Shown in pieces: positions 47-27,472 of a stretch of 29,156 nucleotides of DNA. A program made the position numbers and the translations under genes. Each line of letters begins with the position of its first letter. The stretch's first letter is position 1. The notes below the pieces were generated by a model. That model had not been told where the DNA came from. It searched no databases and saw only the letters and a program-made list of their open reading frames with translations. The DNA is from a virus. The stretch is taken from the IMG/VR virus record IMGVR_UViG_3300045988_111919, positions 1-29,156 of that record; one strand, written 5' to 3'.

Positions 47-194
47 ACATAAAACATTTGAATTAAGATTAGAAAGAGCAGAATTAAAACATAAATTAGA
101 TTCAGTAATGTGGGTTAATCCAGCAAGTGAAGAAGTATCTAATTTATATGAAGAATATTGTGATTTAACACTTAAAATTAATAATATAAAATAA
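47..194 (+). CDS. C-terminal fragment of a hypothetical protein, truncated by the contig start
   Basis: The frame is open from the first non-adapter base (...ELRLERAELKHKLDSVMWVNPASEEVSNLYEEYCDLTLKINNIK). It ends at TAA 192-194, which overlaps the next ATG (TAATG). Confidence 0.4.
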
Positions 195-631
195 TGAAAA
201 CAGATATAAGAAGTTTAGTCTTTACAAAGAATCTATTTAAAGAGAAATTTAATATAGATATAGAATGATGTAAAGACGATTACTCCAGATATGATGGAAC
301 ATTTAATTGGAATGGAATTGATTATATAATTGAAGTTAAAAGGAGAAGATTTAATTCTAATAAATATCCAACCACTATTATTAATAGGGATAAATTTGAT
401 ATGCTATCAAGAAATAATTCTATATTAGTAATAATATTTGATGATGGAGTATATATATTTAAAGATATAAAACAAGCCTTTATAAAGGATTCTATGAAAT
501 ATGGTTGTTCTACAACAGATTTTGGAGGAACTTATGGCTATTCATTAAAAACAGAGTTGTCTTTAAAGAAAGCCATTAAGATAGATGTAAATACAGAATT
601 TAGTAATTATATAGCAAATGATAGCCTATAA
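194..631 (+). CDS. Hypothetical protein, possibly a PD-(D/E)xK-type nuclease (145 aa)
   Basis: ATG at 194. The track ORF 401-631 extends upstream in frame through TGA 266-268 (..DIEWCKDDY..). A D...E-x-K-like motif is present (RYDGTFNWNGIDYIIEVKRRR). Stop is TAA. Confidence 0.55.
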
Positions 632-1112
632 AAGAATACTTAATTTTGAAAACTACCAAATTGGAACTGATGGCTCAATATGAAGTTTAAGAGCATCAGT
701 TCCAAAGAGGTTAAAACCTCAAGTAAAAACTAATGGGTACTTTACAGTAACATTATATAATAAAAATTTGAAAAAGAAGTGTTATATACATAGATTAGTA
801 GCTGAAACTTTTATATCTAATCCGAATAACTATCCTTGTATAAATCATAAGGATGAAAATAAATCAAATAATAATGTAAGTAATTTAGAATGGTGTACTT
901 ATAATTATAATAATAATTATGGAACTCATAATCTGCGAGCTGGATATAGTCATAAGAAACCAATACTGCAATTACTAAATGGAATAGTTATTAAAAGATG
1001 GGATTCAACAATAGATGCTGAGAGAGAACTAAATATACAATCTAGAAATATTGTAAAGGTTCTTAAAGGGCAGCGAAAAACAGCAGGAGGATATATGTGA
1101 ACATATGAGTAA
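618..1112 (+). CDS. Free-standing HNH homing endonuclease (NUMOD4-like N-terminus, HNH core, C-terminal DNA-binding tail; 164 aa)
   Basis: ATG at 618, with in-frame TGAs at 681 (GTDGSIWSL) and 1098 (KTAGGYMWTYE*). Contains HRLVAETFISNPNNYPCINHKDENKSNNNVSNLEWC, typical of phage HNH_3 endonucleases. Stop is TAA 1110-1112. Confidence 0.85.
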
Positions 1113-1413
1113 TAACGAAATTGTAGAAAAGTACTATCCATTTATTATGGAACTTAAGCAAAAATTTGGTGCAGATGATGACTGTGTTCAAATGATTTTT
1201 GTAGAAATACTAGAGTATTCAAATCCAAAATTAAATCAGCTTGATAGCAAAAATGAATTGAAATTTTGGATTACAAGATTATTTAAGAATTATTGATTTA
1301 GTAAAACAAGTAGATATTACTATACCTATAAGAAATATTATGAGATTGTTAAAGAACCACTTGAACAACAAAATGACGAATTGGAGGATTGATTAAATGA
1401 AACGGAAGATTAA
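1105..1413 (+). CDS. Sigma-70/ECF region-2-like protein (102 aa)
   Basis: Track ORF 1105-1296 continues through TGA 1294 and TGA 1390 to TAA 1411-1413. The pattern ADDDCVQMIFVEILEY...ELKFWITRLFKNYWFSKTSRYY resembles sigma region 2 (D-x-x-Q..F ... W..I..N....R). Confidence 0.5.
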
Positions 1414-1642
1414 TATTGACGATTTACTTACTGAGTATGAAATAGACTATAGTATGTTTACAAATATGGATGATAGACTATTAAGTATATATCCAAAATG
1501 ACTTGAGCTTAATAAGGCAGATAAGACAGTAATCATATTATATGCTGAATATCACAGTTATAGAGAAGTGGGAAGAATATTAGGAATTAGTCATACTACA
1601 ATTCAAAGATTTATTAAACAAATAAGAGAGAGATTATGTTAG
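1397..1642 (+). CDS. Sigma-70 region-4-like HTH protein (81 aa)
   Basis: ATG at 1397, overlapping the previous ORF by 17 nt in the +1 frame, with a GGAGG 9 nt upstream. TGA 1499 reads as W (YPKWLEL). DKTVIILYAEYHSYREVGRILGISHTTIQRFIKQIRERL is a classic region-4/LuxR-type HTH. Stop is TAG. Confidence 0.55.
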
Positions 1643-1965
1643 AATTATTTATAATAGCAGTAATAATAGTCTTTATAATTGATTTATCTGGGGCTTTGGA
1701 TAGTTTTAAACACAGTATTTGAAAAAGACTATTTAAAGGTATACCTTATAAAGAAGATTGAAGACTAAAACCTTTAGATTGCAGTTTATGTATGACTTGG
1801 TGAATTGGATTAATATATATTCTTATTACAAGTCAATTTTCAATTTTAATGGTTGGGTATATTGCACTATTAGCATTTATGACTCCAATTATTAAAGATA
1901 TTATGATATTATTAAAAGATGCATCTACTAAGCTGATAGATGTTATATACAAACTTATTAATTAA
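1636..1965 (+). CDS. Small multi-pass membrane protein (109 aa)
   Basis: ATG at 1636. Three in-frame TGAs, including a TGG-TGA pair encoding WW (CMTWWIGL). Hydrophobic segments at the N-terminus and in the middle. No standard-code ORF covers this region, but it is continuous under TGA=Trp. Confidence 0.6.
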
Positions 1966-2054
1966 AAATTATATTTTATGGAAACAGAAGTTATTTATCA
2001 CTACAAGAATGGAAAGTTAATTTCTATATTTACTTATACTAAAAAGCGCTAATT

Positions 2055-2390
2055 ATGAAACAATTAACAGAAGAGCAGTTTAAATATTTAAGAGGATTTG
2101 AAGATAGATTTGTAACGGCAACTAAGTCTAATTATTGCAGAAATGTACAAAAGCAGGATGTAATTAAGCTTAAAGAGATTTATGAATATTTAATTGAACA
2201 AGAATATAGAATGAGCGTAGCTTGTGCTACTTGTATACTTAATCTTATAAAGAGGATTGCCCCAATCTATTTTGAATATCAAGAAAAACTAAAGGAAAAT
2301 GAAAGTAAAGAATCAGGAACTGCCGAAGAAAATAGGGAGACCGAAAAAGGAAGAAGTAAAAGAGGATCAAATAGACGAACAAAAAACTAA
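2055..2390 (+). CDS. Hypothetical protein (111 aa)
   Basis: Track ORF with no in-frame TGA. Its low-complexity basic/acidic tail overlaps the next gene by 92 nt. Confidence 0.5.
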   Translation: MKQLTEEQFKYLRGFEDRFVTATKSNYCRNVQKQDVIKLKEIYEYLIEQEYRMSVACATCILNLIKRIAPIYFEYQEKLKENESKESGTAEENRETEKGRSKRGSNRRTKN

Positions 2391-2751
2391 ATATCTTTAT
2401 GCAGCAAGATTATTTAATAAAGGGTGGTCCAGAAATAAAGTAAGTGAGGAACTTCAAACTAAATATGGAGTTGGGCAAACTACTGCTGCTAAATATATTA
2501 GAGAAGCTTATAAGATTATTGCAGATAAAAACGATAATCTTATAAAGAATTTAAGACATATACAATTAACAAGATTGGAAACATTGTTGGATATTGCTAT
2601 TAGTAAAAATGATGTAAGATCTGCTACTGAGGTTATTAAAACAATAAATTCTATGTTTGGATTAAATCAACCAGAAATTCAAGTTAATATTCAAAATAAT
2701 GAATGCCAATTTAAATTTGGAGATCCTATTATAAATGACAAGGATATATAA
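2299..2751 (+). CDS. Putative terminase small subunit / DNA-binding HTH protein (150 aa)
   Basis: Lies immediately upstream of, and overlapping, TerL. Has an AT-hook-like GRPKK followed by an HTH-like segment (GWSRNKVSEELQTKYGVGQTTAAKYIREAY) and a helical C-terminus. Confidence 0.5.
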   Translation: MKVKNQELPKKIGRPKKEEVKEDQIDEQKTKYLYAARLFNKGWSRNKVSEELQTKYGVGQTTAAKYIREAYKIIADKNDNLIKNLRHIQLTRLETLLDIAISKNDVRSATEVIKTINSMFGLNQPEIQVNIQNNECQFKFGDPIINDKDI

Positions 2752-3982
2752 AGGATATAGGCCATTTATGTACCAATATAAGGTTCATATAGCTATGGCA
2801 GATGCTTATAGATCTGGAAGGATATTTACAATTAAAGCTAAACGACAAGTAGGTAAATCTTTCTTAGCTGAAAATGAATTATTACGATTTGCAATTAACT
2901 ATCCAAAAACAGTCAATTGTATAGTAGAACCTACTCTTGGGCAATCAAGAAAAGTGTTTAAAGAAATAGTTAATGCTATAGCTGAAGCAGATATTCTTAA
3001 ACGTAAGAATGAAACTTTGCTTGAATTAGAGTTTAATAATGGCAGTTCTATATTATTTAGATCTGGAGAACAAATGGATTCGTTACGAGGATTCTCTGTA
3101 AGTGGATTACTTGTATTAGATGAGGCTGCTTACTTAAAAGATGAAGTATTTGAAATTATTAAACCTACTACTGATGTGTGGTCTGCTCCAATATTAATTA
3201 TTAGTACTCCAAGGTTTCGAGAGGGTTTCTTTTATGACTGCTTTACTAAAGGGTTAGATCCAAAATACGACAAGTTCTATAAATCATTTGATTGAGCTTT
3301 AGAAGATACATCTATGCTTTTAGATAAAGAGAAGTTAGAGATGTATCGACTTACAACCTCAAAAAATAAATTTAGAACCGAATATTTAGGGGAATTTGCA
3401 GATGATGATGGATGTTTATTTAATAATATAGCTAATTGCATAATTGAGAAAAAACCAGATTATCAGAGTCTTTATATAGGAATAGACTGGGCTACTGGGA
3501 GTGGTAAAGACTATACTTGTGTTACTGCTTTAAATGAATCTGGGCAAATGGTCTTTATAAAGTATTTTAACGATAAAACTCCAACAGAGCAAGTTGATTT
3601 ATTAACAAATATACTAACTGAGTATCAAGGATTTATAAAGATTGTACAAGTTGAACAAAACTCAATTGGTAGTGTATTCTATGATATGTTAGTTCAGAAG
3701 AATCCGAAAATCAGGATTATACGATTCTTAACTACTAATAAGAGTAAGGCAGATATAGTTAATAAGCTTCAAGCTGCTTTGGAGAATGAAAAGATAGGAT
3801 TATTAAAAGATGATAAACTTTTAAATGAGTTAAGACTATATGAAGCTTCATATAATCCAAAAACTGGAAATGTTAGTTATAATGCTCCATCTGGATTTAA
3901 TGATGATACAGTAATTTCATTAATGCTAGCCTATGACTCATTAAATACAACTAAAGGACATTATAATATTAAAATTAAATAG
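2735..3982 (+). CDS. terL: Terminase large subunit (415 aa)
   Basis: Track ORFs 2735-3295 and 3314-3982 share a frame and join through TGA 3293-3295 (KSFDWALEDT). Walker A is KAKRQVGKSF and Walker B is GLLVLDEAAY. The C-terminal nuclease half has IDWATGSGKDYT and NDDTV acidic motifs. Stop is TAG. Confidence 0.9.
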
Positions 3983-4905: not shown

Positions 4906-5385
4906 ATGACAAGTCAAGATTTAAAATTCCCTAATCTTGAAGAAGTACTAAGACAATATGGAAGCCAATTGATTTCAATATATAGACAGAAGTTATTACA
5001 GAATAATGCTGATGATACAGGTACATTAGGTAATACTTTAAACTACATTGTTGAGGATCAAGATGGAATTTATGAAGTCAGCTTACAAATTCAAGATTAC
5101 TGAAAGTATTTGGAAGAAGGTAGATCTCCAGGTAAATTTCCACCTATTAGGGAAATAAAGAATTGGATAAGAACTAAACCTGTATTACCAAGACCTTATG
5201 GAGGTAAACTTCCATCTACAGATCAACTTGCATACTTAGTTGCAAGAAAGATTCATTTACAAGGAACACAAGGAAAGCGTATATTAGAAGAATCTTTAGA
5301 TGAGCTTTCGGCTGTTGCATTGTTAGATGATGCAATTACAAAAGATTTAGAAACGCAAGTTAATAATGTATTTAAAGACTTTTAA
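4906..5385 (+). CDS. Virion morphogenesis protein, possibly an HK97 gp10-like neck protein (159 aa)
   Basis: Track ORFs 4906-5103 and 5110-5385 share a frame and join through TGA 5101 (IQDYWKYLEEGRSPG). The pattern TGTLGNTL...YEVSLQIQDYWKYLEEG resembles the gp10-family motif. Confidence 0.45.
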
Positions 5386-5387
5386 AA

Positions 5388-7592
5388 ATGACATTTATAC
5401 CAAGTAAATTAGGAATACCAAGAAGTACAGGAACATATCCTGTTAAATGGGAAAATCCAGGATGAGGTCTTACAGGAGTATATGATTATTGGCTATGAGG
5501 AGATGACTATTCAGAAGAGGGTCCATTAGATGTTACTATTTCTAATGCAAGTACAAGTGGTTGTACTATTAACTTTACAAATCCCTCAACTATTACAACA
5601 GACTCTTCTACAATATTTAGATTATACCCAAAAGGACTGACTACTGCTCTATTAGAAGATACTATGCCAGTTTATCTTCATAGTCAAGCTCCTGGATATT
5701 ATCCTGCAAATAGCAGTATAACAGTACCCAATACTGGAGGTACTTATACTGTTGAATATATATTAGGTAGAGCAGATATTATTAAATGAACTTGTGATGT
5801 AGTAAATGCTACTGCTTTAGTAAGTGTTGAGGTATTAGAATGGGATTCCTGCTCTATTAAGTTTAAGATTACAGTAAATGCTAATACTCAATGGAATACT
5901 AATCTTACTGGAACTATTCAATTAGGAGCTTATTATGAAACTAATAAGTTTATTTCTTATAGTTATGGCTTTACTATTGAAAAGAGTGGAGTTCCAGAAG
6001 ATTTGAAGTTAATAGTTAATCCATCATCTGGAACTTATGGAGCTGGCCCAGGTGTTACTGATAGATTTATGTGCACTCTAACAAGTACTGAGGAAGAGAT
6101 AACAGAATTATCTGTAACTTGTCCAGGATCTTCAAATATTATGGTTGATAAAGTTAATAAATACTTTGTTATTACTTTTCCTGATAATGCTACAACTAGT
6201 ATTAAAAACTATGCTGCATTAGTTACTGCAATAACCTCTGGTGGATATACATTAAATGCTACAGTTCCAATTACTAAGTTAGCTACTTCTTTATCTTTAA
6301 AGTCCAGTGTTAGTATTGGATATACAGCAGGAAGATATAAGATAGACGGTACAGGTTCTGATAATTTAGATGATGTAGTATTTGCAATTCCAGCAGATGC
6401 TCAGACTTGGTTAAGTAAAATGGAGTTAGTAATAGAAAGAGGAACTCCAGGAGGTATGAATATTGTAAGTATTAATTTTGATGCTACAGAAAATACAGGT
6501 AATGCTTCAAGAAAAGCAACAGTTGGAGTTACAGTAGTAAAAAATGGTTCTAGTGTTATAAATACTTCATTTAATATTGTACAAGAGGTTAAAGCAGATA
6601 TATCTCCAATATGGAAAGATTATATATGAGAAGAGGAAACTTTAAATGATTTTATAGAATATCATCTTGATTATGCAGGAGATACTATTTATGCTGGTAA
6701 AGCTTATAAATATCCTGATACTACAGGAGTACAATTTTTACTTAATGATGTATCTGAAGACTTTTTAGATAACGGCATTATATTTCCATCTTTTGGAAAG
6801 ACAGAAATTATACCTAACTATTTAAAAACCTTTACATTAATAACTTCAAGCGGTAGTGAAAAGCCTGTAACATTCTTTAATGATTGGTCTTATAAAGATA
6901 CAGATTTAACTAAGCCTTATTTCTTAAGTGATCCTATTGACACTTTAGTTGATTCAAGACAGTATGTATTATGTAGTTGGATATTCCCAACTGGTGAAGG
7001 TGTGCTTAATAGACGTTATACTACACCTGAAGGAGTAGCAACTACTGTAGATATTACATTAAGACAAGGAATTAATGGTTATACTTATGCAGAACCTTTA
7101 GGTAATTTACTTTTGGAATGCAAGAGTAAATATGAAATAGGATTTGTTGAATCTGGCTCTTTTACTACAACTATTAATTATCAGATTGATACTACTAATA
7201 AGAATTATGTATTATATTATACTAATGCTTATGGAGGATGGGATAGTTTATTAGTACAAGGTAATGTTAAACAAACGGATCAAATTGAATCTCAGACTTA
7301 TGTAAGAAAGGTATTAAATACCACTTCTCAGTTTAGTAAAAATAAGTATTTAAACACTATAGTTCCAGAATGGACTTTATATACTAATTATCTTACAGAT
7401 ACTCAAGCATCAAAGATGCACCATCTATTAGAATCTACTATGGTATATTTACATAACCTGGAAGATAATAAGATTATTCCTGTAATAATTACTAATAATA
7501 GTTGTGAGTATAAGACGTATAGTAATCAGGGTAAAAATATGTTTTATTATACTATAGAAGTGCAAAGTTCTCAAGATAAATATAGAAAATAA
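5388..7592 (+). CDS. Large virion/tail protein (734 aa) with Ig/BACON-like repeats in the N-terminal half and a distal-tail-like C-terminal domain
   Basis: ATG at 5388. One continuous frame with no TAA or TAG, running through TGAs 5463, 5496, 5787 and 6627. It links the otherwise ORF-less 5388-6002 region with track ORFs 6003-6629 and 7002-7592. BACON-like strings are present (..TENTGNASRKATVGVTV.., ..ITVNANTQWNTNLTGTIQL..). Confidence 0.65.
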
Positions 7593-7593
7593 A

Positions 7594-10500
7594 ATGAGAA
7601 AGAATATTAAATTATTTATTGCAAATAAAGAGGTTGACTGTAGTGAGGGAATTAGTCTTCCTATAACTTATACAGTTGAGGATTTCCAAAACCCCACTAT
7701 AGTCAAGAACTCGTTTAGTAAGACGATTTCTATACCTGGTACCAAAAATAATAATAAGATATTTGGAGAAATCTATAAATTAGATAGATTACAACATATT
7801 GAAGACGGTCAGTTTAGCGGTATTAATTTCAATCCTTCAAAACGAGTTGATTTTGGAATCTATGATAATGGAGATTTAATAGAATCTGGTTATATGCAAT
7901 TAAATACCATACAAATTAAACAGAAGGTCATTACATATAACATTACTTTATATGGAGGCTTAGGAGATTTCTTCTATGGGCTTAAATATAAAGAAGATGG
8001 ATCATTAAGAACTCTTGCTGATTTACAATACTTTATTACAGATGAGGAAGGTAATGTTTTACCTGCTGATACTGAAATGGATTTTTATATTAATAAAGAT
8101 TTTGTAAATAAATCATTTAATAATTATTGGAATAGCGACTTTACTACATTAGATAGCTTTGTTGGATTTATTCCTGCATATAATGGTTTATATGAGAATT
8201 TTGACAATGAAACTTGTTTAATAAATACAGCAGGAGACACTCTATTTCCCAAATCTGCAAGTGATGGAGGAACAACATATACTCCATATAATGGTTATGC
8301 TTTAGCACAATTAAATAGAGCTTATACAGAATGGGAAATAAGAGACTTACGCAGTTATATGCAAAGACCAGTGTTAAAACTTTCTAAGCTTATAGAAACT
8401 ATTTGTAGAAAAGAGAATTCTGGATATGATGTAATATTTGATGATTACTTCTTTAATTATGCAAATCCTTATTGGAGTAAATCATTTGTAGCTCTTCCCT
8501 TGCTTGGAAGTAGTGAAGATGAAGAATCAGATTCTATTAAAGAGAACGCAAAGCTTATTAAATATGGAGCAGATAACTGGTGGGTAGGATTAAAACCTGG
8601 AGGAACAACAACTTCATATAATTGAGGATATACTTCTGTTGATGGCAGCGAGGTAATAGTTCCTGGAGAAGGAAATATTATTGATTTATCTGCAACACCT
8701 GCTAATACTTTAGTAAATATCTCAATGGATTTTCAGGTGTTCTTCAATGCTAATGCTAGTTCCTCTGCAAATAATCTTTATTTATCCTATGTACGCAATG
8801 GAAAAATGGGAAATACTGAGTATCATAATGATCCGTATAGAACATCTTTAACTGTTCAGATACTTGTATATAATGCCGATGATGAATCTGTTCCATCTAA
8901 ACCTATAGCATATTCTCCATTGTATAATTTTACAAATAAGATTAATACTCAAGTTCAAGCTGGACCATCTACTTGGTTTAATTATTATCCTCTTACTGAT
9001 GCTCCTGTTGAGGCTATTTATGGTCATTTTGTTAAAGATAGTGGACAGAGGTATTATTTTAAAAGCGATACTGGAAGTAATACCTTTAGATTTGTAGTTA
9101 AAGATATGCCAAAAGTAAATAAGATAAAGGTGTCAATTCAATTTGCCAGAAGAACAGAAAGCTTATATAATCAAGATGCTTTATGGACTTCAGATAATAT
9201 GAATCCAAATAATGTTACTGCATCAAGAGTAGCAGGATGGTCTGAATTTTTATATGATTCAGATCAATATACATTAATTGCAAGTTGGCCATCGGCTGTA
9301 ACATCTGATGCTCTTATTACTAAGCAGAAGCTTTTAAAGACAGAATCTACACCTGCGGATTATTTACTTAGCTATGCTAAAATGTTTGGATTATATTTTA
9401 TTAAAGATATAGATTCCAAAACTATTAGAATATTTACTAGAAACAACTTCTTTAAAAATAAGATAACAGATTGGTCTAAACGAATTGATTATTCAAAAGA
9501 TTTTTCAGTTAATCCATTATTATTTGATAAGAAGTGATATACTATGAAGCAGGAAGCTCCTGAGACATATTATGCAAAGAAATATAATAAACAGTATGAT
9601 ATAACTTATGGACAACAGAGATTAGATACAGGATATCACTTTAATAGTGATAATACAGATTTATACTCAGATAACTTATATGAAAATGTAATATCTGCAA
9701 GAGATGTAGATAAGTATTATAGAAACTATTTTAATAGTTCAAGTTCACCTGTTCCTTGCTTCTTAAATGATAATATTACTTATCAATTATTCCATTCTAC
9801 ATCTACTGAAAGAAAAACAAACGATCAGGATCTTTATGGAGTAAATTTCATTGATTCATCTAAGACTACAGAGTGGTGGGATGTTCCTGGTAATGATATA
9901 TTTGCAAAGACTTGTTTCTATTCATTAGATAATGATGAGCAAAGTTTAGAAGAAATTAAATCGACATTACTGTTCTATAATGGCAATGTAGAGATGAAAG
10001 ATATTGATGGAAATCCTATTACATATTGGATTACCGACGATGTTACAGAAATGTCTGTATTAAATGATTCTGAACCTTGCTATTTATATACTACTAGAGA
10101 AACTAATGAAGCTGGTGCTAAGATTGCAATTAAAAGAACCTCTTTACCACAATTCATAAGATATAATATATCAAGTAATTATGTAATATCTAGTTGGGAT
10201 TTTGGATTACCAAGAGAAATTTATATAGATAAAATTGCATATCCAGAACAAAGTGTTATTTATTCTCAATTCTGGAAAGAGTTCTATACTGATCAATTTG
10301 ATGTTAATACTAAGAAAGTTACTTGTTTTGTAAAATTAAATGATTTACAAGTAAATTTTGATATGTTAAGACAGTTTTACTATTTTGAAGATAGTTATTG
10401 GGTATTAAATAAAATAGATGCTTATGATGTTAATTCTGATTCAACTACCAGATGTGAATTTATAAGAGTTCAAGACATCAATAATTATATAGGAGGAGTA

Positions 10501-11043
10501 TCTACTTTAGGTAAATACATAGAAGTAAGTGACCCAGAAGTTACTGTAGGGTATGAAGCTGGAAGTAAAATTGTAACTATAGAATCTAATGTTCCTTGGA
10601 AAGTTAGTTGGTATAATAATTTGAAGATTACAAATATTTCACCAATAGAAGGATTACCTGGAATTAGTACTATGACTATTGAATATAATGAAAATCCTAA
10701 ATATATTGAAGATAACTTCTATTTAAGTTTAGTAGCTCAATCTGATATTTATGAAAGATTAGGACAAGTATATTTTTATCAAACTCCTGATCCATCTAAA
10801 TCAGTAAAGCTTTCTGGAAAAGTAACAGATGCAGATGGTAAAGTATTAGATGTACAACCTTATATCTATGTAGATAATGACAACTTTGTAGATAGTACAT
10901 ATTGTGATGCAACAACTGGAGAGTACTATTTATATGTTCAAAAAGGAGTTCCATTCCATTTTGAAGTACAATTATCAAGTGTTGTTAAATATGAGGAAGA
11001 ACTTACTTTAAATGCAGATACTATTAAAAATATTACTATTTAA
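7594..11043 (+). CDS. Very large tail/baseplate-type structural protein (1149 aa) with a C-terminal BACON-like domain and a CarboxypepD_reg-like domain
   Basis: Track ORFs 7594-8625, 8725-9537 and 9544-11043 share a frame and join through TGA 8623 and TGA 9535. C-terminal strings are VTVGYEAGSKIVTIESNVPWKVSWYNNLKITNISPIEGLPGISTMTIEYNENP and KLSGKVTDADGKVLD. Confidence 0.65.
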
Positions 11044-11045
11044 AT

Positions 11046-13445: not shown

Positions 13446-13479
13446 CTTAGATACAAATTTGAGTAAAAAACTTGACATT
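13446..13479 (+). repeat. Conserved intergenic element copy A (CTTAG..TTTGAGTAAAAAACTTGACATT), containing a TTGACA -35-like hexamer
   Basis: The 19-mer GAGTAAAAAACTTGACATT (13461-13479) is identical to 22078-22096. TTGACA (13472-13477) is followed at 16-18 nt by TATATA/TATAAA. Confidence 0.6.
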
Positions 13480-14150: not shown

Positions 14151-14156
14151 TTAATT

Positions 14157-14756: not shown

Positions 14757-14777
14757 TTTATAAAATTTTAAATAATT

Positions 14778-15683: not shown

Positions 15684-15723
15684 TTTCAATAGATTTTATT
15701 AACTTATAAATGATATTGAAATT

Positions 15724-16248
15724 ATGGCTTGTTTAATAACTATCGCAGGAATCACACTTGATTGCCAACCTTCATTGGGTGGAATCAAACAGGTATGGAT
15801 TACCCAGTATGCAGATGTTAAGAGTGTAACGGTTGATCCTGAGAGCAATATGATTTCAGCTATTACTCTTGAGTCTTCAGCTAAATGGTATAACTACCAA
15901 TTTAGAAAGGCTACTGGTTCTCTAACCTCAACTTTAAATGTAGATGAAAGTGCTGGTGTTAATTATGTAAGTAATGAGCTTGCTCTTGTATTTACAAAGA
16001 TGGAAACCGCAAAACGAGTAGAGATTGCAGCTTTATCAATTGGTCAGCTTGCAGTTGTTGTTGAAGATAGCAATGGTAAGTATTGGTTCTTAGGTAAAGA
16101 TGATTATGTAAGCGCTTCCGCTGGTACGGGTGTTACTGGTACTGCTAAAGGTGATCAGAATGCTTATACTCTGACACTTTCAACAGATTCAGATTCTTAT
16201 CCTTATGAGTTATCTGCAGAAGCTATCCAAAGCGTTGTAGGTGCTTAA
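15724..16248 (+). CDS. Putative major tail (tube) protein, or alternatively a head decoration protein (174 aa)
   Basis: Highly expressed-type codon usage, located directly after the capsid gene. The pattern GGIKQVWITQY...LAVVVEDSNGKYWFLGKDD...TGTAKGDQNAYTLTL resembles phage tube proteins. A strong terminator follows. Confidence 0.4.
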   Translation: MACLITIAGITLDCQPSLGGIKQVWITQYADVKSVTVDPESNMISAITLESSAKWYNYQFRKATGSLTSTLNVDESAGVNYVSNELALVFTKMETAKRVEIAALSIGQLAVVVEDSNGKYWFLGKDDYVSASAGTGVTGTAKGDQNAYTLTLSTDSDSYPYELSAEAIQSVVGA

Positions 16249-16259: not shown

Positions 16260-16295
16260 GGGGCGAGTATTAATTTACTTGCCCCTTATTTTGTT
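16260..16295 (+). terminator. Rho-independent terminator
   Basis: 10-bp stem GGGGCGAGTA/TACTTGCCCC (one G-U pair), loop TTAATT, then TTATTTTGTT. Confidence 0.85.
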
Positions 16296-18535: not shown

Positions 18536-18536
18536 T

Positions 18537-19658
18537 ATGAATATTAGAGATGATTTAAAGACATTTTATGTAGGTGACAGACAAGGTACTGCTATTTATA
18601 TTGGCAGTACCAAAGTCTGGCCTATCAATCCTTGTAATCCACAAATAGTTACAGTTGCTAATCCAGTTCCTCAAGGCACTACAATAGTTGATCCTTGTAG
18701 TTATGTATTTAGCAGTTATGATGGAACTATAAATGGTATACAAAGGGATTGAATGGGTAGAGGATCTGGCCTTACTTCTACAGTAATTAGTTTTACTGCT
18801 GATTTAAGTGAATTAGCCCTTAATATAGATGGTGTACCTCTTTGTATTATTTTAGGTTCTGCTCAAACATATGCAGATGTAAAGTTAAATAGTGGAGATT
18901 TAAGTAGAAAAGGAGGGTTTTTTGAAACATCTCATTTTGATCTAAATAACCAGGAGATTACTAATCTTAATGAAGCATATGGAATATGGTCTAGTGAATC
19001 TCAATTTTGGGGTCAAACAATACATAGTGCTACTTTATCTAATGTTAAAATACCTACAACTACTAAAGAAGTAAGTGCAAATTATTTATTTATAGGAGTA
19101 AAAATAGATAATAATGATTTCTCTGTAATGAATAATTTTCAAAATCTTGTATTAGTAGATCCAAAATGGGCATTTGCAGAAACAGATGATGGAGCTACTA
19201 ATATAGATAATATAACGATTAATATTCCATTTAAAGGAGATTGTAATCATATGTTTCATAGAGCATTATATCTAACAACTATTCCAAGTAATTTTACCTT
19301 TACTGGAATTACAGATATAAGCTATATGTTTAGTACTTGTAGAAGATTAACAGCTACACCAGAAATAGATTGCCATCTTGTTACAGATTGTACTAGTTTT
19401 GCTGCAAATTGTCCAGAATTAGTAACTGTAGGAGCTTTAAATGGATTAGGAGAGAGTTTAACTAAAGGAGGAATTCTTTATTTTGCACAATCTCCAAATT
19501 TATCTACAGATTCATTACAAAATATAGCAGAATCTATTGGCACAGCAGTAGCCTCTTATACAAGTATATCATTCAAATCTACTGCATATGATAAATTAAC
19601 AAGTGAACAGAAATCATTAATAGCTTCAAAGAATTGAAGTATAAATCGAATTGCATAA
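18537..19658 (+). CDS. Receptor-binding-type protein 1 with a BspA/DUF285-like leucine-rich repeat domain (373 aa)
   Basis: Track ORFs 18537-18752 and 18753-19637 join through TGA 18750, and the frame continues through TGA 19635 to TAA 19656-19658. Contains MFHRALYLTTIPSNFTFTGITDISYMFSTCRRLTATP. The C-terminus LTSEQKSLIASKNWSINRIA is shared with the gene at 21075. Confidence 0.6.
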
Positions 19659-19660
19659 TT

Positions 19661-19897
19661 ATGAAAATTGAAATTAAAGAAAAATACAAAGTAGTTAGTC
19701 CAGAAGAAGGTTATGTACTTACTAACTATAAAGAAGGAATGGATATTAAATTATACAGTTCATTTACTGAATGTATCTGTCCTTTAAGTTGCGATTTAGA
19801 GCATCTATCAGAAGTCTCTTTAGATAAGGATGCTGAATATAAAGAATTAGCTATTAAAGCTTCTAAAGAGTATGAGGAATCAATAAAAGTTAGATAA
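19661..19897 (+). CDS. Hypothetical small protein (78 aa)
   Basis: ATG at 19661, within track ORF 19634-19897 and directly after the upstream stop. No homology recognised. Confidence 0.45.
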   Translation: MKIEIKEKYKVVSPEEGYVLTNYKEGMDIKLYSSFTECICPLSCDLEHLSEVSLDKDAEYKELAIKASKEYEESIKVR

Positions 19898-19899
19898 TT

Positions 19900-20559
19900 A
19901 TGATTATACTTAAGAATACTAAAAATACACAAACTTTTTATGTAAGTAAGAAATGTGGTATTGAATCTGGACAACTTCCTGTTGGTTCTTATACTAAGAT
20001 TGAAGCAGATGAAAGATTCCAACCTAAAGGTAATTACATTTCTGAAGAGAAAGCAGAAGAGTTAATTAATACTAAAGTAACAGAAAGTATTGAAGAGCAA
20101 GTTCCCCCTTTAGTAGATCAATCTATAGATGCTAAACTTGTTCCAATTAATACTGAGATTACTAATCTTAAAGGGGAAGTTGAGGAGTTAGAAACTTCTA
20201 AGATGGAAGTATTCCAAGCTAATCAACCTCTATCTTTACATAGAAATGGAGAAGGTTTGCAACTATCTGTAGATTTAAGTAATTATGCAACTAAAGCAGA
20301 AATTCCTGATACTAGTGATTTTGCTACTAAAGAAGAGCTTACAGCTGTAGAGAATAAGATTCCTGATGTATCTGGATTAGCTACTAAAGATGAAGTTGCA
20401 CTTAAAGCAGATAAAAGTGAATTATCAAACTATGTAACTACAGATGCATATAATACAAAGATGACAGAGTTAGATGGAGAAATCTCAGCAATTCAAGCTC
20501 AGATTGGTAATATTTCAACTACTCTTGATACAATTAATGGTGAAATTCCAAATGAATAG
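19900..20559 (+). CDS. Short tail fibre / fibre-connector protein (219 aa)
   Basis: [61 protein letters not shown] repeats, as in the 16340 fibre, followed by a coiled coil at the C-terminus. Confidence 0.6.
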
Positions 20560-21073
20560 AGTATTAACAAATTATCCTAACTATAGTGTATCTTCTACAG
20601 GAGATGTATATAGTAACCCATTGACTTTTAAAGATTCTATTGGAAGAACCAGAAAACAAATACATAAAAAGCTAAAACAGCATATAGATAAATATGGCTA
20701 TAATTATGTAATTCTAGTATCTGGCTTAGATAAACCTAAAGCTATTAAAGTTCACAGACTAGTAGCAGAAGCATTTATTCCAAATCCTGACAATCTACCA
20801 TATGTTAACCATATAAATGAAAATAAGACAGATAATAGGGTAGAAAATTTAGAATGATGTGATGCAAAGTATAATAATACATATGGAACTAGAATAAATA
20901 GATGTATTGATAAAATTAGTAAACCTGTAGGGCTATTTATTAATGATTTACTAGTTAAAACATATAAAAATGCAATTGAAACATCAATAGATGGGTATAC
21001 TCATAGTAGAGTTATAGATTGTCTTAAAGGAAGAACAGACACTTATAAAGGGGTAAAATTTAAATATATCTAA
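20552..21073 (+). CDS. Free-standing HNH homing endonuclease, paralog of 618-1112 (173 aa)
   Basis: ATG at 20552 overlaps the fibre stop. [37 protein letters not shown] has its Trp encoded by TGA 20855. The frame continues to TAA 21071-21073 (..GVKFKYI*). Confidence 0.8.
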
Positions 21074-21074
21074 T

Positions 21075-22043
21075 ATGGCAAATACAATTTCTGATAAATT
21101 AACGTATCTTGAAGGTACTAAGAGTGCCATTAAAGATGCTATTGTAGCTAAAGGTGTTGCTGTATCAGATTCCGATACCTTTAGAAGCTATGCAGATAAG
21201 ATAGGACAGATTTCTGGAGGTGGTGGAGGAAAGATTAATTTAAATGATTATGGATTAACATTTGCATATTCTAGTATGACACAAGAGCAATATAATAATA
21301 TAGAATATTCTCTTCCAGATAATATAAATCATTGATTTTATGGGACTAATTTCATATCTACAATAGATATATCAAGTCATATTGATCTGTCTAAAGTATA
21401 TGACGCATCATATGCCTTTCAAAACACATATAATATATATATTGATAATATAAGAACTAATGTTGGGGGTAGTGACGTATTTTATGGATTTCAAGGCACA
21501 CTAAATAATTTAGAATTAATTAATATATCCTCTAGTTGAACTTATGCAACAAGAACATTCTTTAATGCTTCTAATTTACCAACTACTTTAAAAGTGATAA
21601 ATGAAGTTGATACTGGTGTATCATCTTTACAATATTTCTTTTATTCTGTTAGCAGTAATGTTCCTGAAATTGAAGTTATTAATGGACAACTGTCTTTATA
21701 TAATTACTTTGGTTCATATAATGAGGGTGTTACAACAGTAGGAAAAATTAAATTAAATAATTGCACATTAACAGCAGATCTACATAGAACTTCAATATGT
21801 GCAGCTTCTAATACTATTGTTACTTATTTTGGGGGTGTTGAAGGAGCCGATAAAAATATGAATTTAGCAAATTTTAGAGCACTAAATAGTCAATCAGTAA
21901 CTGATATTATTACAAATGTTAGTGATTTAACTGGAAAGGATACTAAAACTTTAACTTTTTATACTAACGTTTATAATGCACTTACTGAGGAACAGAAATC
22001 ATTAGCTGCATCTAAAAACTGAACTTTAGCAAGTTCAGACTAA
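21075..22043 (+). CDS. Receptor-binding-type protein 2 (322 aa), paralogous at its C-terminus to 18537-19658
   Basis: Track ORFs 21075-21335 and 21594-22022 share a frame and join through TGAs 21333 and 21537. The frame continues through TGA 22020 to TAA 22041-22043. The N-terminus LTYLEGTKSAIKDAIVAKGVAVSDSDTFRSYADKI is fibre-adaptor-like. The C-terminus is LTEEQKSLAASKNWTLASSD. Confidence 0.6.
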
Positions 22044-22062: not shown

Positions 22063-22096
22063 CTTAGTACTTTGAGTGAGTAAAAAACTTGACATT
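22063..22096 (+). repeat. Conserved intergenic element copy B
   Basis: CTTAGTACTTTGAGTGAGTAAAAAACTTGACATT. It shares an exact 19-mer with 13461-13479 and carries a 4-nt GAGT duplication relative to copy A. Confidence 0.6.
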
Positions 22097-22196: not shown

Positions 22197-22589
22197 ATGA
22201 ACTACAGTTTAATTCTTCAAAATACAACTACTAAAGAAGTTTATACATTTGATCTTGAAAATCAGAATTATTCTGAGAATATCTACTATAAGTTTGATAT
22301 TACACTTCAAGAAGGAATGAGAGACGGTGAATATCAATATATTTTATTTACTAATCCAAATAAATTTCAAGTTATAGTTGATGTAAACAATCCATTTAGA
22401 TCAGAGTTATATGGCAATCCAGTTATTCTGGTTACATATAATAATACTCTTACTAATGGTACTCAGATATTAGTTGCTGGTAAACCAATACCTATATTGG
22501 GAACAGGATTAATAAGAATTGGAGATTATGAGAATAATAATTATCAATACGACAAACCTAATACATACGTAAGTTATGAGCGAAAATAA
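22197..22589 (+). CDS. Hypothetical protein (130 aa)
   Basis: Track ORF with no TGA. It overlaps the portal start by 14 nt. Confidence 0.5.
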   Translation: MNYSLILQNTTTKEVYTFDLENQNYSENIYYKFDITLQEGMRDGEYQYILFTNPNKFQVIVDVNNPFRSELYGNPVILVTYNNTLTNGTQILVAGKPIPILGTGLIRIGDYENNNYQYDKPNTYVSYERK

Positions 22590-23667
22590 AACAAAAGTTC
22601 AGTTAAGTGCTATTGATCCGTTTATTGCAAGTAATATCGTATTACCTACAGAAACTAAAGTGAGAGGAAAAGATTATGTAATGTGAGGAGAAGATAATAA
22701 ATATCCATTATATCTATGGGATTTATATTTAAATGTTGCCACTCTCCAATCCATTATTAATGGTTCTGCTGACTTTATTGTTGGTAACGATGTTAAATGT
22801 AATGCTCCAGGATTTGAGGTAGTTGTAAACAAGAAAGGTGAAACAATAGTTGATATAATGAGAAAAATCACTATTGATAAGATGATATTCGGAGGTTATG
22901 CTATCCAAGTAATTAGAGATATGCTTGGAAGAGTTGCAGAGATCTATCATATTGATTTTATGAATGTAAGGTCAAGCGAAAAGAATGATATATTATATTA
23001 TGCAACTGATTGGACAGCTTGGTCTGTAAAAGCTATAAAATATCCAAAATTTGGAGCTGGGGATGAAAATCCAGCTAGTATATTTTATAATAAAGGTTAT
23101 ATAACAAGAGGAGTATATCCTATTCCTGTTTATGGAGCTGCTATTTTATCTTGCGAAACTGAGAAAAATATTAATGAATTCCATTTAAATAACATCAATA
23201 ATGGATTTATGGGTAATCTTATTATTAACTTTAATAATGGGGAACCTACAGATGAAATTAGAGAGGAGATTGAGAGGAATATTAATGAGAAGTTCTCTGG
23301 TTATCAGAATGCTGGCAGAATATTGATTTCATATAATGCAGATGAGGCAAATAAGACTACTATTGAAAGATTAGATTCTGATGATTTTGATGAGAAATAT
23401 CAATCATTATCTGAGAGAACCAGAGATCAAATATTCTGTGCCTTCAGAGCTAATCCTTCGTTGTTCGGTTTAAACTATAGCTCAGGATTTAATGAAAATG
23501 AGTTTAATGAAGCATTTAAGCTATATAATCGTACTTTTGTACGCCCAATACAATCAGAAATTTGTGACTCATTTGATAAAATCTTCGGCATTAAGAATAG
23601 TATTACTATTGAACCATTTAGTTTAACTCCAAAAGGAATGTCAGACAATGCAGAAAATGTTGAATAA
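22576..23667 (+). CDS. Portal protein (363 aa)
   Basis: ATG at 22576. The frame runs through TGA 22684 (DYVMWGEDNKYPLYLWDLY) into track ORF 22858-23667. The patterns GEDNKYP..L..LY..V..LQSIINGSADFIVG and ..IFCAFRANPSLFGL.. are typical of Phage_portal family proteins. Confidence 0.7.
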
Positions 23668-24310
23668 TTATACAGTGTACTGCCATAAGAATATAGCTGA
23701 TAATAAATTATATTTTGGAATAACATCACTTACTTTAAATAATAGATGGGGAACTAAAGGTCAAGGTTACAAGAATAATCTTTATTTTAGCAGAGCAATT
23801 AAAAAATATGGTTGAGATAATTTTGAGCATATTATAATTAGAGATAATCTTCCAGAAGCTTGTGCTAAGACTTTAGAAAAGATTCTGATTTATAAGTATA
23901 ATACTAGAAATCCAAAATATGGGTATAATTTAACTGATGGAGGAGACGGTACTTGTGGATATTCTTTTTCACAAGATTATAAAGATAGTCTTAGAATTAT
24001 AAGATCAGGAGAAAATAACTCATTTTATGGTAAACAGCATTCAGATGAAAGCAAGCGTAAAATGAGGGAGGCAAGATTAGGCAAAACTCCTTGAAATAAA
24101 GGTATGAAACTCTCAGATAAAGAAAAACAACTAATTTCAGAACGTCAGTGCAAAAAAGTATATAAGTATGATTTAGATGGTAATTTTATTTGTGAGTATA
24201 AATCAGCTAAGGAAGCTGGAGAGAAGAATAATGTAGATTCTTCTAGTATATCTAGATCTTGTAGAAAAAATAAACCCTGCAAAAATTATAAATATTATTA
24301 TGGAATATAG
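23657..24310 (+). CDS. GIY-YIG homing endonuclease, I-TevI/Seg-like (217 aa)
   Basis: ATG at 23657 overlaps the portal stop. Contains YTVYCHKNIADNKLYFGITS...AIKKYGWDNFEH...GYNLTDGGDG...NSFYGKQHSDESKRKMREARLGKTPWNKG, with TGAs at 23813 and 24092. The C-terminus is track ORF 24104-24310. Stop is TAG. Confidence 0.85.
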
Positions 24311-24977: not shown

Positions 24978-24978
24978 A

Positions 24979-25404
24979 ATGACGTATTTTGAATTAATAA
25001 ACAATTTAAAAGCTTGTGCTCTTGAAGAACCCAATATTAATTTTGTAGGAAGTAAGGATATATATGAACTTAATAGTATCCCAACTATTGAATATAATGT
25101 ATTTTATATAACTCCAAATACATTTAATATGGATGAGGATACTATTACTTACTCTTTAAATCTCTATTTTATAGCAAGATGGGATGAAACTGATAATAAT
25201 CAGCTTGAAGAGCAATCAGCTGGAATATTAGCATTAACTAATATAATTAACCGATTTAATAACCAATATCCAGAAGTTGATATTTCTTATCCTTTAATTT
25301 TTACTCCATTTTATCAGAAGTTCAAAGATATTTGCACTGGAGTATTTGTTAGAGTTGATTTAGCTGTAGACAATACTCTTGGTACTTGTTCTGATAATAT
25401 GTAA
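24979..25404 (+). CDS. Hypothetical neck/structural protein (141 aa)
   Basis: ATG at 24979, right after the upstream stop and within track ORF 24877-25404. Confidence 0.45.
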   Translation: MTYFELINNLKACALEEPNINFVGSKDIYELNSIPTIEYNVFYITPNTFNMDEDTITYSLNLYFIARWDETDNNQLEEQSAGILALTNIINRFNNQYPEVDISYPLIFTPFYQKFKDICTGVFVRVDLAVDNTLGTCSDNM

Positions 25405-26057
25405 TGGAAAATAAATTAAACTGGTTTGGAAAGGTATTAGAATGAGTAGATAAATATGGACTGTGGAAAATAATTAAAGGTGGATTTGGATTTATATTTA
25501 TTTCTTATGTAATAATTATAAGTACTAATCCAGGAATAATATATGATAAAGTTGTAAGTTATATAGAAACAGTTCATAATACTAATCAAGTAATACGACA
25601 AGAAGCGGATCTTAAGGTTAGATATATCCTTAAAGACCTTTTAAATGATACGAATGCAGATAGAGCTTGAGTTATTGAGTATCATAATGGCACTTCAGGA
25701 TTAGGAGGATTACCATTCACTTATGGAATTATGAATAGTGAAGAAACAGAACCTGGAGTTGCTCCAGTTTCAAGTCACTATAAAGACTTCCTATTATCTG
25801 ATTATTTATTTATATTGGAAACATCTAAAAAAGGAGGATGATTTGGAGATGTTGAAGATATAAAGGAATTAGATAGAAGAATGTATTATGCATTTAAATC
25901 TAATGATGTTAATAAGATTGCAATATTCTATTTAAAATCAGAAGATAGAGATATTGGAATTTTAGGCTTATCTTATTGTGATAATGAGATGCCAGTTGAT
26001 ACTTGAGTAAAACTAAGAGATGCAGGAATTAAAGTAAGTATAATTTTAAATAAATAA
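25404..26057 (+). CDS. Membrane-anchored lysis-cassette protein with the same architecture as the T4 T holin: one N-terminal TM segment plus a large C-terminal domain (217 aa)
   Basis: ATG at 25404 (TAATG overlap). Continuous only if TGA=Trp, with four TGAs (LEWVD, RAWVI, GGWFG, DTWVK). TM segment is IIKGGFGFIFISYVIIIS. Lies immediately upstream of the small TM protein and the endolysin. Confidence 0.45.
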
Positions 26058-26060
26058 GTT

Positions 26061-26222
26061 ATGAAATATTGGATGAAATATTTAATAGCAATAGTAATTA
26101 TAATCTTAGTCTTTTTAATGGTAAAAGTAATTCCATTTTGGATTATATTAGTACTCATAGCACTTGGTGCAGGATGTCATTTATTTTACCGTTATACTAT
26201 GCTTAAAGATATTATTAAATAA
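26061..26222 (+). CDS. Small two-TM membrane protein, a holin/antiholin candidate (53 aa)
   Basis: MKYWMKYLIAIVIIILVFLMVKVIPFWIILVLIALGAGCHLFYRYTMLKDIIK. It has two hydrophobic helices and a charged C-terminus, and its stop overlaps the endolysin ATG (TAATG). Confidence 0.55.
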   Translation: MKYWMKYLIAIVIIILVFLMVKVIPFWIILVLIALGAGCHLFYRYTMLKDIIK

Positions 26223-26674
26223 TGAAATATTTTACTATTAGTGAATTAACAAGATCTGATACAGCTTCTATTAAGAAGATAGATAATACTCCAAATAAAG
26301 AGATTACTGAACACCTTATAGAGTTAGTCGAGAAACTTTTAGACCCATTAAGAAGTGCTTGGGCAGAGTATTGTGATGTTAATCGGTTGGGGAATCCAGC
26401 AATAAGTGTGAATTCAGGTTATAGATGTAATGAGCTTAATAAAGCTGTAGGAGGATCTTTGACATCTGCCCATCTAACAGGATATGCAGCAGATATAATT
26501 CCAAGTAACGGCCAAATGAAAGAATTTCAGGTTTGGATTACTGAAGCTATTGAAAAGTATGATTTTGATCAACTTATTTATGAGAAACCTAGAAATGGAA
26601 TAGCTAGTTGAATTCATTTAGGACTGAAGAATAAAGAGGGTTTGCAGAGAAGACAGAAATTTACAATTATATAA
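26222..26674 (+). CDS. Endolysin, Peptidase_M15 family (zinc D-Ala-D-Ala / L-Ala-D-Glu peptidase type; 150 aa)
   Basis: SGYRCNELNKAVGGSLTSAHLTGYAADI carries the H-x6-D zinc motif. The third-ligand region ASWIHLG is reached only by reading TGA 26609 as Trp. Stop is TAA 26672-26674. Confidence 0.85.
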
Positions 26675-26676
26675 TT

Positions 26677-27060
26677 ATGGACTCCAAATCAAGTAAACTG
26701 CTTCATAAGACAAAGAAGAAAGTAAGAAGTGAAGAATATTTAAAGTACCAAAGATATATAAGATCAAAGGATTTTAAGGCCATTAGAGAGCAAATATTAT
26801 TGCGGGATAACTACCACTGCCAAACTTGTAACTGATGTGTTCAGGAAGGCGGAAATAGGTCTTTATCGGTACATCATAAGACGTATGAGAATTTATATAA
26901 TGAGCAGGAACATTTGGAAGATTTAATAACATTATGTTCAGTTTGTCATAAAGCTATTCATCGGTTAGTAATTATCAAAGATTTAAACAGAAATAGGAGG
27001 GTTTATGCCCTCCTATTTTCATTTATTCCATCATTTCAAATAATTTATCATCTTCTTTAG
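26677..27060 (+). CDS. Small HNH endonuclease (127 aa), of the type often associated with terminase
   Basis: CQTCNWC...LSVHHKTYENLYNEQEHLEDLITLCSVCHKAIH forms a Cys4 + HNH core, with TGA 26833 read as Trp. The C-terminal ~20 codons run through the bidirectional terminator, so the real C-terminus is uncertain. Confidence 0.65.
26993..27020. terminator. Bidirectional terminator between the convergent arms
   Basis: 9-bp stem ATAGGAGGG/CCCTCCTAT with loop TTTATG. It is A-rich upstream and T-rich downstream, so it could act on both strands. Confidence 0.7.
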
Positions 27061-27166
27061 GTATTAAATCTCCTGTTTGTAAGTCTACTAAAAACTTACT
27101 ATTTTCTGGTATTACATATACATAATACACTCCATTTATACATACTTTATAGGTTTGGTATTTCAT
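27023..27166 (-). CDS. Hypothetical small protein (47 aa)
   Basis: Reverse strand reads MKYQTYKVCINGVYYVYVIPENSKFLVDLQTGDLIPKEDDKLFEMME*. It is tightly packed after the upstream minus-strand ORF. Confidence 0.35.
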   Translation of the reverse strand: MKYQTYKVCINGVYYVYVIPENSKFLVDLQTGDLIPKEDDKLFEMME

Positions 27167-27167
27167 A

Positions 27168-27308
27168 TTAATCAGTATATGTTGCATTAGTAATTTCTGG
27201 TTTTGGCATTTCTTCTACTTCTTCCCAAACTAAACCTCTATTCTGGTTTTCTAGTTGAACTATTCTGTATTCTAGTTCTTCAAGCTTTTTAAATAAATGA
27301 TCATCCAT
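27168..27308 (-). CDS. Hypothetical small coiled-coil protein (46 aa)
   Basis: Reverse strand reads MDDHLFKKLEELEYRIVQLENQNRGLVWEEVEEMPKPEITNATYTD*. Confidence 0.35.
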   Translation of the reverse strand: MDDHLFKKLEELEYRIVQLENQNRGLVWEEVEEMPKPEITNATYTD

Positions 27309-27310
27309 AA

Positions 27311-27472
27311 TTAATCAAATTTAGAAATAAACATATAATCTTTATTTTTTAATACTTTGTCTATAATATCACCAAATCTTTTAGTAGCCTCTTTACATTC
27401 GAGCATTCATTTATCCAATTCTTTAATATACTCTTCTGTTTGTTTAATTGTTTCTTTAATATCACTTTCCAT
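27311..27472 (-). CDS. Hypothetical small protein (53 aa)
   Basis: Reverse strand reads MESDIKETIKQTEEYIKELDKWMLECKEATKRFGDIIDKVLKNKDYMFISKFD*. The Trp is a TGA (plus-strand TCA at 27407-27409). Confidence 0.35.

Follow-up and report, generated by a model that had tools for sequence, protein, structure and literature searches.

Gene content and layout of the phage genome

We analyzed IMG/VR record IMGVR_UViG_3300045988_111919 over its full 29,156 nucleotides (nt; hereafter, the window), which is the nearly complete genome, about 30 kb in size, of an uncultivated tailed phage of the human gut, and assessed the original prediction that its genes are written in a code in which TGA specifies tryptophan (Trp). 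The window has a guanine-plus-cytosine (GC) content of 30% and holds 36 tightly packed genes under translation table 4, of which 34 are on the plus strand and the two at the right end (g35 and g36) on the minus strand. On comparative sequence evidence, TGA is shown to stand for Trp in this phage clade, with genes terminated by TAA and TAG only.

Pfam matches comprised a large terminase (TerL), a portal, Peptidase_M15_3, two HNH_3/NUMOD proteins, one HNH, one GIY-YIG/NUMOD3 and a sigma-70 region-4 helix-turn-helix (HTH). TerL and portal, together with a prohead/head maturation protease matched in the g16 region by PHROGs and a Phage_tail_C domain in g20, provide the gene set of a tailed phage (Caudoviricetes). 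Searches of most window proteins against PHROGs and NCBIfam returned almost no matches, and the majority of the smaller ones had no family match. The features are as follows, with lengths in amino acids (aa) and TGA positions given for each gene; open reading frames are abbreviated as ORFs.

1..46: library adapter, not phage DNA; end of P5, i5 index GCGTAAGA, presumed Nextera read-1/mosaic-end sequence
194..1965, plus strand: first rightward block, g02 to g06, with TGA in every gene and TGA/TGG exchange in clade columns
within 194..1965, plus strand: g02; TGA 266
618-1112, plus strand: g03, HNH_3/NUMOD (Pfam; aligned to I-HmuI); TGA 681, 1098
within 194..1965, plus strand: g04, sigma region-2-like; TGA 1294, 1390
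within 194..1965, plus strand: g05, sigma region-4 HTH; TGA 1499
within 194..1965, plus strand: g06, membrane protein; TGA 1720, 1759, 1801
2735..3982, plus strand: large terminase, 415 aa (Pfam Terminase_6N/6C); TGA 3293
3984-4643, plus strand: g10, overlapped by g11 in the -1 frame
4469-4786, plus strand: g11, -1 frame ORF overlapping g10; TGA 4637, 4769
4906..13361, plus strand: tail and baseplate block g12-g15 (ORFs, clade columns)
within 4906..13361, plus strand: g12; TGA 5101
within 4906..13361, plus strand: g13, 734 aa; TGA 5463, 5496, 5787, 6627
within 4906..13361, plus strand: g14, 1149 aa; TGA 8623, 9535
within 4906..13361, plus strand: g15, tape-measure-like, 771 aa; TGA 11679, 11718, 11778, 11958
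13461..13477, plus strand: 17-nt motif GAGTAAAAAACTTGACA at the head of the capsid operon; second exact copy at 22078-22094, both intergenic
13557..16248, plus strand: TGA-free capsid operon, g16 prohead protease-like, g17 scaffold-like, g18 major capsid protein (putative) and g19; 10 TGG, 0 TGA
16258-16287: terminator-like hairpin downstream of the capsid operon
16340..22043, plus strand: tail-fibre region g20-g25 (ORFs, Pfam, clade columns)
16340-18535, plus strand: g20, tail fibre, 731 aa, Phage_tail_C domain; no Trp codon in the window (28 TGA and 1 TGG in relatives)
within 16340..22043, plus strand: g21; TGA 18750, 19635
within 16340..22043, plus strand: g22 and g23, tail-fibre region genes
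20474-21073, plus strand: g24, HNH_3 (Pfam); TGA 20855
within 16340..22043, plus strand: g25; TGA 21333, 21537, 22020
within 22576..24310, plus strand: portal, 363 aa (Pfam); TGA 22684
23648-24310, plus strand: GIY-YIG/NUMOD3 endonuclease (Pfam); TGA 23813, 24092
25404..27060, plus strand: lysis region g31-g34 (ORFs, Pfam)
within 25404..27060, plus strand: g31; TGA 25443, 25668, 25839, 26004
within 25404..27060, plus strand: g32, holin-like, 53 aa, two transmembrane segments; TGA-free
within 25404..27060, plus strand: g33, Peptidase_M15_3 endolysin; TGA 26609, directly before the third zinc-ligand His
26677-27060, plus strand: g34, HNH; TGA 26833
27311..27472, minus strand: g35, 53 aa; TGA 27409-27407, with TGA in 20/20 relatives
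27491..29112, minus strand: g36, SF2 DExH helicase, N-terminus lost at the contig end; TGA-free, 5 TGG
29113..29156: library adapter; Nextera mosaic end (presumed), read-2 adapter, i7 index CTCTCTAC

Comparison with a 30,921-bp relative showed that both window ends adjoin on a circle. The window lacks about 0.8-1.1 kb of this circle, comprising the N-terminal part of the helicase together with a control region and one or two short ORFs. The two terminal sequences, which we take to be Nextera adapter, affect gene calls at either end: the adapter at 1..46 makes a false start for ORF 30-194, and ORF 27491-29140 likewise begins with translated adapter. A DNA search against cultured phages matched only the adapter at the contig end, where bases 1-50 equal the ends of unrelated phage records because untrimmed adapter sits there; several deposited phage genomes seem to carry the same contaminant at their ends. 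An unlisted 46-aa ORF (MDDHLFKKLEELEYRIVQLENQNRGLVWEEVEEMPKPEITNATYTD, minus strand, 27168-27308) begins 3 nt past the g35 stop and fills most of an apparent 250-nt intergenic gap. Between the helicase and g01, in the region absent from the window, a 161-aa gene is inserted in one relative (L060) and missing from others; its N-terminus (IYVIKL...KVGYT) was read by eye from the sequence as T5orf172/MUG113-like, and a MUG113 gene occupies the same position in L084.

Reassignment of TGA to tryptophan

All 33 plus-strand positions listed in the original prediction, and the minus-strand triplet at 27407-27409, are TGA and lie in frame in a table-4 ORF, and its estimate of about 39 such codons proved to be exactly 39 once five further ones (1759, 1801, 25668, 25839 and 26004) were counted. 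TGG is also still used for Trp, as had been claimed, with 77 TGG against 39 TGA in the 36-gene model. ORFs of >=60 aa covered 0.96 of the window under table 4, on one coherent strand, compared with 0.80 under table 11 and only 0.82 when TAG was read as sense, and table-11 ORFs of this size covered 0% of five reported ORF-less gaps and 14-23% of the other two. On the plus strand, ORFs of >=100 aa increased from 19.8 kb under table 11 to 26.4 kb with TGA as sense; shuffled sequence gave coverages of 0.09 and 0.24. Full-length proteins were restored with Pfam support for TerL (415 aa), the portal (363 aa), Peptidase_M15_3, and the HNH and GIY-YIG enzymes. The claim that genes end only at TAA or TAG (30 TAA and 6 TAG in 36 genes) is circular under table 4 but is upheld by the orthologous stop positions of the clade, taken as the codon after the last aligned residue, which were TAA in 742 cases, TAG in 85 and TGA in 0 of 873, with exchange between TAA and TAG at the stops of several genes.

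If the TGAs were instead true stops, in a genome that is degraded or mis-assembled or that relies at a few sites on selenocysteine or rare readthrough, the fragmentation of genes under table 11 and the truncated proteins annotated in public records would follow. However, the frame is kept across all 39 sites, dozens of independent assemblies, made from different samples, conserve the sequence past each TGA, TGA and TGG swap at the same columns, catalytic residues such as the third M15 zinc ligand fall beyond TGA, and rare readthrough could not yield a protein that has four TGAs. The clade comparison has already effectively refuted this reading, to which we attach almost no probability.

The amino acid was assessed in a clade sample of about 80 related loci, consisting of 57 IMG/VR loci found via the capsid protein, 22 more found via the helicase, and ENA/Logan human-gut contigs. 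At the TGA columns of the window, relatives most often had TGA (615 of 1106 codons), then TGG (298), followed by TTT, TAT and TTC, with GGA in seven; conversely, TGA occupied 438 of 2890 codons at the TGG columns of the window. Distant relatives with 46-62% GC, which cannot be code 4 and were compared in standard translation with TGA masked as X, had mostly TGG and then Tyr codons at TGA columns. The TerL column (3293) was TGA in 17 and TGG in four clade members and was also TGG in L058 and L059, and the portal column was TGG in 42 relatives, TGA in 15 and Tyr in seven, with TGG or Tyr codons in the standard-code relatives.

The protein families agreed in part with the prediction that TGA falls at family Trp positions. 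All full-length homologues, including those with as little as 50% identity, had Trp at the endolysin M15 column (26609), and the HNH core TGA of g24 (20855) aligned to a Trp of I-HmuI, so the claim stood for M15 and the HNH core; the N- and C-terminal TGAs of the g03 HNH aligned to Tyr and Phe of I-HmuI, residues that are aromatic, not strictly Trp. A glycine reading (code 25), known from Absconditabacteria and Gracilibacteria phages, could be entertained since code-25 phages occur in human microbiomes (PMC10746230) and one variable tape-measure column (11718) had GGA in six relatives. Against it stand the 7/1106 GGA codons at TGA columns compared with 298 TGG and then Phe and Tyr codons, the invariant Trp of the M15 column, the Trp of I-HmuI at the HNH core column and the TGG of standard-code relatives; this reading is likewise effectively refuted already and we give it a negligible chance. 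Code 25, selenocysteine and real stops are thus excluded because the column, M15, HNH and relative comparisons all give Trp, which, together with the lack of TGA at orthologous stops, bears out the central claim of the original prediction.

Two of the 39 codons (4637 and 4769) count as sense only if the -1 frame of g11 is translated. The overlap of g10 and g11 begins at a nine-T run (4462-4470), and high-GC relatives, too, keep the g11 frame, with TGG at the column of 4769; the nucleotide region around 4462-4470 was poorly conserved among the compared loci. A programmed -1 frameshift product of g10/g11, like the tail chaperone G/GT, is possible.

Four homing-endonuclease genes (618-1112, 20474-21073, 23648-24310 and 26677-27060) occur in this 30-kb genome, all four with TGA. 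Their presence and position vary among close relatives (for example L082-L087), which suggests active mobile insertions.

Uneven use of TGA and its decoding in the host

TGA made up only 39 of 116 Trp codons in the window (34%; 34-40% overall), while codons ending in A made up 66-100% for Lys, Glu, Leu and Arg. Its use differed strongly among genes: in close relatives TGA accounted for 0/148 Trp codons in the capsid protein g18, 0/23 in the scaffold-like g17, 1/97 in g19, 4/57 in the protease-like g16, 0/39 in the holin-like g32 and 1/91 in the helicase g36, compared with 30-100% in most other genes. The set g01, g16-19, g32 and g36 had 0 TGA and 18 TGG in the window, and across the clade 3 of the 18 Trp columns in the TGA-poor set were ever TGA versus 82 of 98 elsewhere (Fisher p = 5e-8, for a gene grouping chosen post hoc). 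General codon bias was considered as a cause of the TGA-free capsid operon and rejected, as A-ending Lys, Glu, Leu and Arg use was equal in both gene sets; Gln was lower in the TGA-free set (0.52 vs 0.73). In the Mycoplasma phages P1 and MAV1 (27-29% GC), Trp was encoded by TGA in 95% and 77% of cases, respectively, with TGA in almost all genes, and such dominance across all genes, a trait of phages of code-4 hosts, was not found here.

The capsid genes form a unit of their own, with the conserved 17-nt motif upstream and the terminator-like hairpin downstream. The motif GAGTAAAAAACTTGACA occurs in two exact copies in the window against 0.41 expected, is kept at up to four intergenic gene-block boundaries per clade genome (L060, L017, L020 and others) and usually has a GC-rich hairpin 5-20 nt after it. 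The motif probably serves the phage as a promoter or regulatory element. g18 is a putative capsid protein by its position beside protease- and scaffold-like genes, with no capsid family in Pfam or PHROGs; homologues were found in 57 viral contigs of IMG/VR and a comparison with cultured phages gave no match.

These patterns would be expected if each TGA were costly to decode, such that the codon would be under-used everywhere and kept out of the proteins in highest demand (protease, scaffold, capsid protein and g19), with the helicase and the holin-like gene likewise lacking it; the proteins needed in largest amounts would avoid TGA because its decoding carries a per-codon cost. Decoding would be carried out by a Trp-tRNA competing with release factor 2 (RF2), while the phage's own TAA and TAG terminators would need only RF1. 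The TGA pattern fits better to suppression against a release factor than to a native code-4 cell.

No recognizable source of this decoding was detected in the phage. With ARAGORN, neither the window nor any of 81 related loci, some of which together span a whole 30,921-bp relative, yielded a transfer RNA, and Rfam returned no tRNA-like match at the gathering threshold or at E<=10. No family match to a release factor or tryptophanyl-tRNA synthetase (TrpRS) was found among the proteins, with no large protein left unassigned and most of the smaller ones matching no family, so the suppressor tRNA-UCA, RF1 and TrpRS that are typical, not universal, in recoded phages were not seen here. The helicase g36 was rejected as a candidate code-switch protein since it carries SF2 helicase motifs (GCGGTT, DEYH, TAT and QxxGRxR, conserved in a 51-sequence alignment); it had no match among PDB sequences. 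TGA decoding would then have to come from the host or from an unrecognized small phage factor. A detectable suppressor tRNA has been reported in 35% (Borges et al., 10.1101/2021.08.26.457843) and 15% (Cook et al., PMC11210395) of code-4 phage genomes.

Evidence on the host comes from lysis genes, translation signals and homologues. A Peptidase_M15_3 endolysin with conserved zinc ligands adjoins the holin-like gene, and a host with a cell wall, hence not one of the Mollicutes, is indicated because of this peptidoglycan peptidase; a phage of wall-less cells would need no such hydrolase. We found no Shine-Dalgarno signal (mean duplex energy -0.99, vs -1.96 for random 20-mers, -3.7 for P1 and -4.6 for MAV1), and lack of Shine-Dalgarno sites is typical of Bacteroidota. 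g13 had a sub-threshold BACON match (E 0.0018, 18.6 bits, cut-off 25), and a helicase homologue with 46% identity lies in integrated elements with an Arm-DNA-bind_5/Phage_int_SAM_5 (IntDOT-type) integrase, DUF3871 and BACON-domain neighbours. One related contig was binned with Bacteroidaceae; the GTDB bin contigs were all phage. Prophage context was rejected as a guide to the host: in IMG/VR 3300045988_175865 (148,631 bp; L022 + L079) the 33.5 kb read exceeds one phage genome length, and the record therefore looks like a concatemer, not a prophage. An ENA scaffold of 193,455 bp carrying this 30-kb phage (L082) had only phage genes in the 20 kb read and may be a concatemer too.

The genes that would be expressed first are also recoded. 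Within the first rightward block, g04 has a weak match to ECF sigma factors over their N-terminal half, and g05 has a match to sigma-70 region 4 (window 1105-1642); they are separate ORFs with a 17-nt overlap, g05 being in the +1 frame, and relatives have the same pair of 102 aa and 81 aa. As judged from these similarities, g04 and g05 may together be a two-piece phage sigma factor.

The reading that we favor, with moderate confidence, is phage-type recoding in a walled, standard-code host, probably one of the Bacteroidota, rather than an inherited host code, with decoding that is costly. Several observations weigh against it. The hints for Bacteroidota are individually weak, as the BACON match is below the Pfam threshold, the helicase homologue is at only 46% identity and the binning of metagenome-assembled genomes cannot be relied on for phage contigs. 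The -7 promoter motif of Bacteroidetes (TAnnTTTG) was neither enriched nor intergenic, and the TTGACA within the conserved phage motif GAGTAAAAAACTTGACA departs from the Bacteroidetes consensus. The search for code-change machinery came up empty, and the first rightward genes, both putative sigma halves (g04 and g05) among them, contain TGA, such that decoding must be available early, which is easier to explain if the host reads TGA as Trp. As a probe of competition with RF2, the following base was compared: across the clade, the base after TGA compared with TGG was more often A (0.42 vs 0.33) and less often T and C, a comparison in which the sequences are non-independent and the C depletion does not follow E. 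coli rules.

Under the alternative that the phage follows the host's own code, the host would read UGA as Trp natively or via an unusual tRNA-Trp (e.g., with a 4-bp anticodon stem), and no phage machinery would therefore be needed. The complete clade genomes in which no suppressor tRNA, release factor or TrpRS was found, the early TGAs including those of the putative sigma factor, the uniform recoding of the whole close clade, the lack of TGA stops in it, and the infection of Mycoplasma or Spiroplasma by most cultured code-4 phages (Cook et al., PMC11210395) are all consistent with this. Yet the known code-4 bacteria are wall-less Mollicutes, endosymbionts of insects and protists, and one Patescibacteria family, whereas this phage has a peptidoglycan peptidase endolysin; TGA is a minority Trp codon kept out of abundant proteins and Shine-Dalgarno use differs, both unlike P1 and MAV1. 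Related lineages, moreover, are TAG-recoded or TGA-free: L059 (capsid protein 49% identical) is TAG-recoded, while the genes of L038 (66% identical) and L044 are intact under table 11, with 0/31 plus-strand genes ending in TGA, and use TGA neither as sense nor as stop. Mixed codes among relatives have been described for recoded clades (Borges et al., 10.1101/2021.08.26.457843), and this variation matches the picture for recoded phages of standard-code hosts. We regard a host-derived code as rather unlikely.

We further propose, tentatively, that this gut clade reads TGA as Trp without machinery of its own, already in its first-expressed genes, with host decoding or a new phage factor behind it. 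If the host is walled and uses the standard code, as in the reading we favor, the host itself may provide substantial UGA-to-Trp decoding, for example by means of a weak RF2 or an atypical tRNA-Trp. The other possibility is that one of the small phage proteins without a family match may be a new kind of code-switch factor, such as an inhibitor of RF2 or a modifier of tRNA-Trp. In that event, the lack of TGA in the capsid operon would be a direct readout of incomplete suppression.

Public records and known recoded phages

Recoding of TGA to Trp is a known phenomenon in phages, and the clade is already in IMG/VR, ENA and GenBank. The description of this genome as an unannotated instance therefore holds in part: GenBank and JGI proteins end at TGA, with endolysins of 127-129 aa that stop right before the codon (UVM99281.1, 129 aa; DAZ42929.1, 127 aa; also DAH83113.1), but full-length, code-4-aware calls are already in public catalogues and the same endolysin clusters also hold calls of 149-150 aa with TGA in the DNA. 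Analyses under table 11 lose about a sixth of the coding sequence and split the terminase, portal, tail and lysis genes. What is new is that no machinery was found in the clade, that TGA is a minority Trp codon excluded in a gene-specific manner, and that sister lineages are TGA-free or TAG-recoded. The clade is small and abundant and has been sampled extensively. Selection against TGA can be read in it gene by gene, and it offers a compact test case for the question raised by Borges et al. of how recoded phages without a suppressor tRNA get the stop codon decoded.

Compared with TGA-recoded crAss-like and Jade phages, whose hosts are standard-code Bacteroidota or Firmicutes, the assignment of TGA to Trp is shared; those genomes, however, are 100-200 kb in size and carry a suppressor tRNA(UCA), sometimes RF1 and TrpRS, and block-wise coding, whereas this 30-kb genome is without such machinery. 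The Mycoplasma phages P1 and MAV1 share TGA = Trp, TAA and TAG terminators, lack of a suppressor tRNA and a GC content of about 27-30%, but they use TGA for 77-95% of Trp in nearly all genes, show moderate Shine-Dalgarno use and infect wall-less hosts, while this phage has 34% TGA that is excluded from abundant proteins, no Shine-Dalgarno signal and a peptidoglycan peptidase. Code-agnostic phages of Gracilibacteria and Absconditabacteria (Liu et al., mBio 2023, PMC10746230) resemble L038 and L044 in avoiding TGA, unlike the window with its 39 in-frame TGAs, which are Trp and not Gly. With the stop-codon-recoded gut phages of Borges et al. (code 4/15; small clades Garnet, Amethyst and Topaz, 22-34 kb) this phage shares gut origin, TGA = Trp, a small genome, code variation among close relatives (code 4, code 15 and standard-compatible) and a suppressor tRNA that is mostly absent; it differs from them in that no integrase was found in this phage, and in where the recoding lies. 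In those phages recoding is concentrated in structural and lysis genes, whereas here the capsid operon is TGA-free and the first rightward genes, including the putative sigma factor, are recoded.

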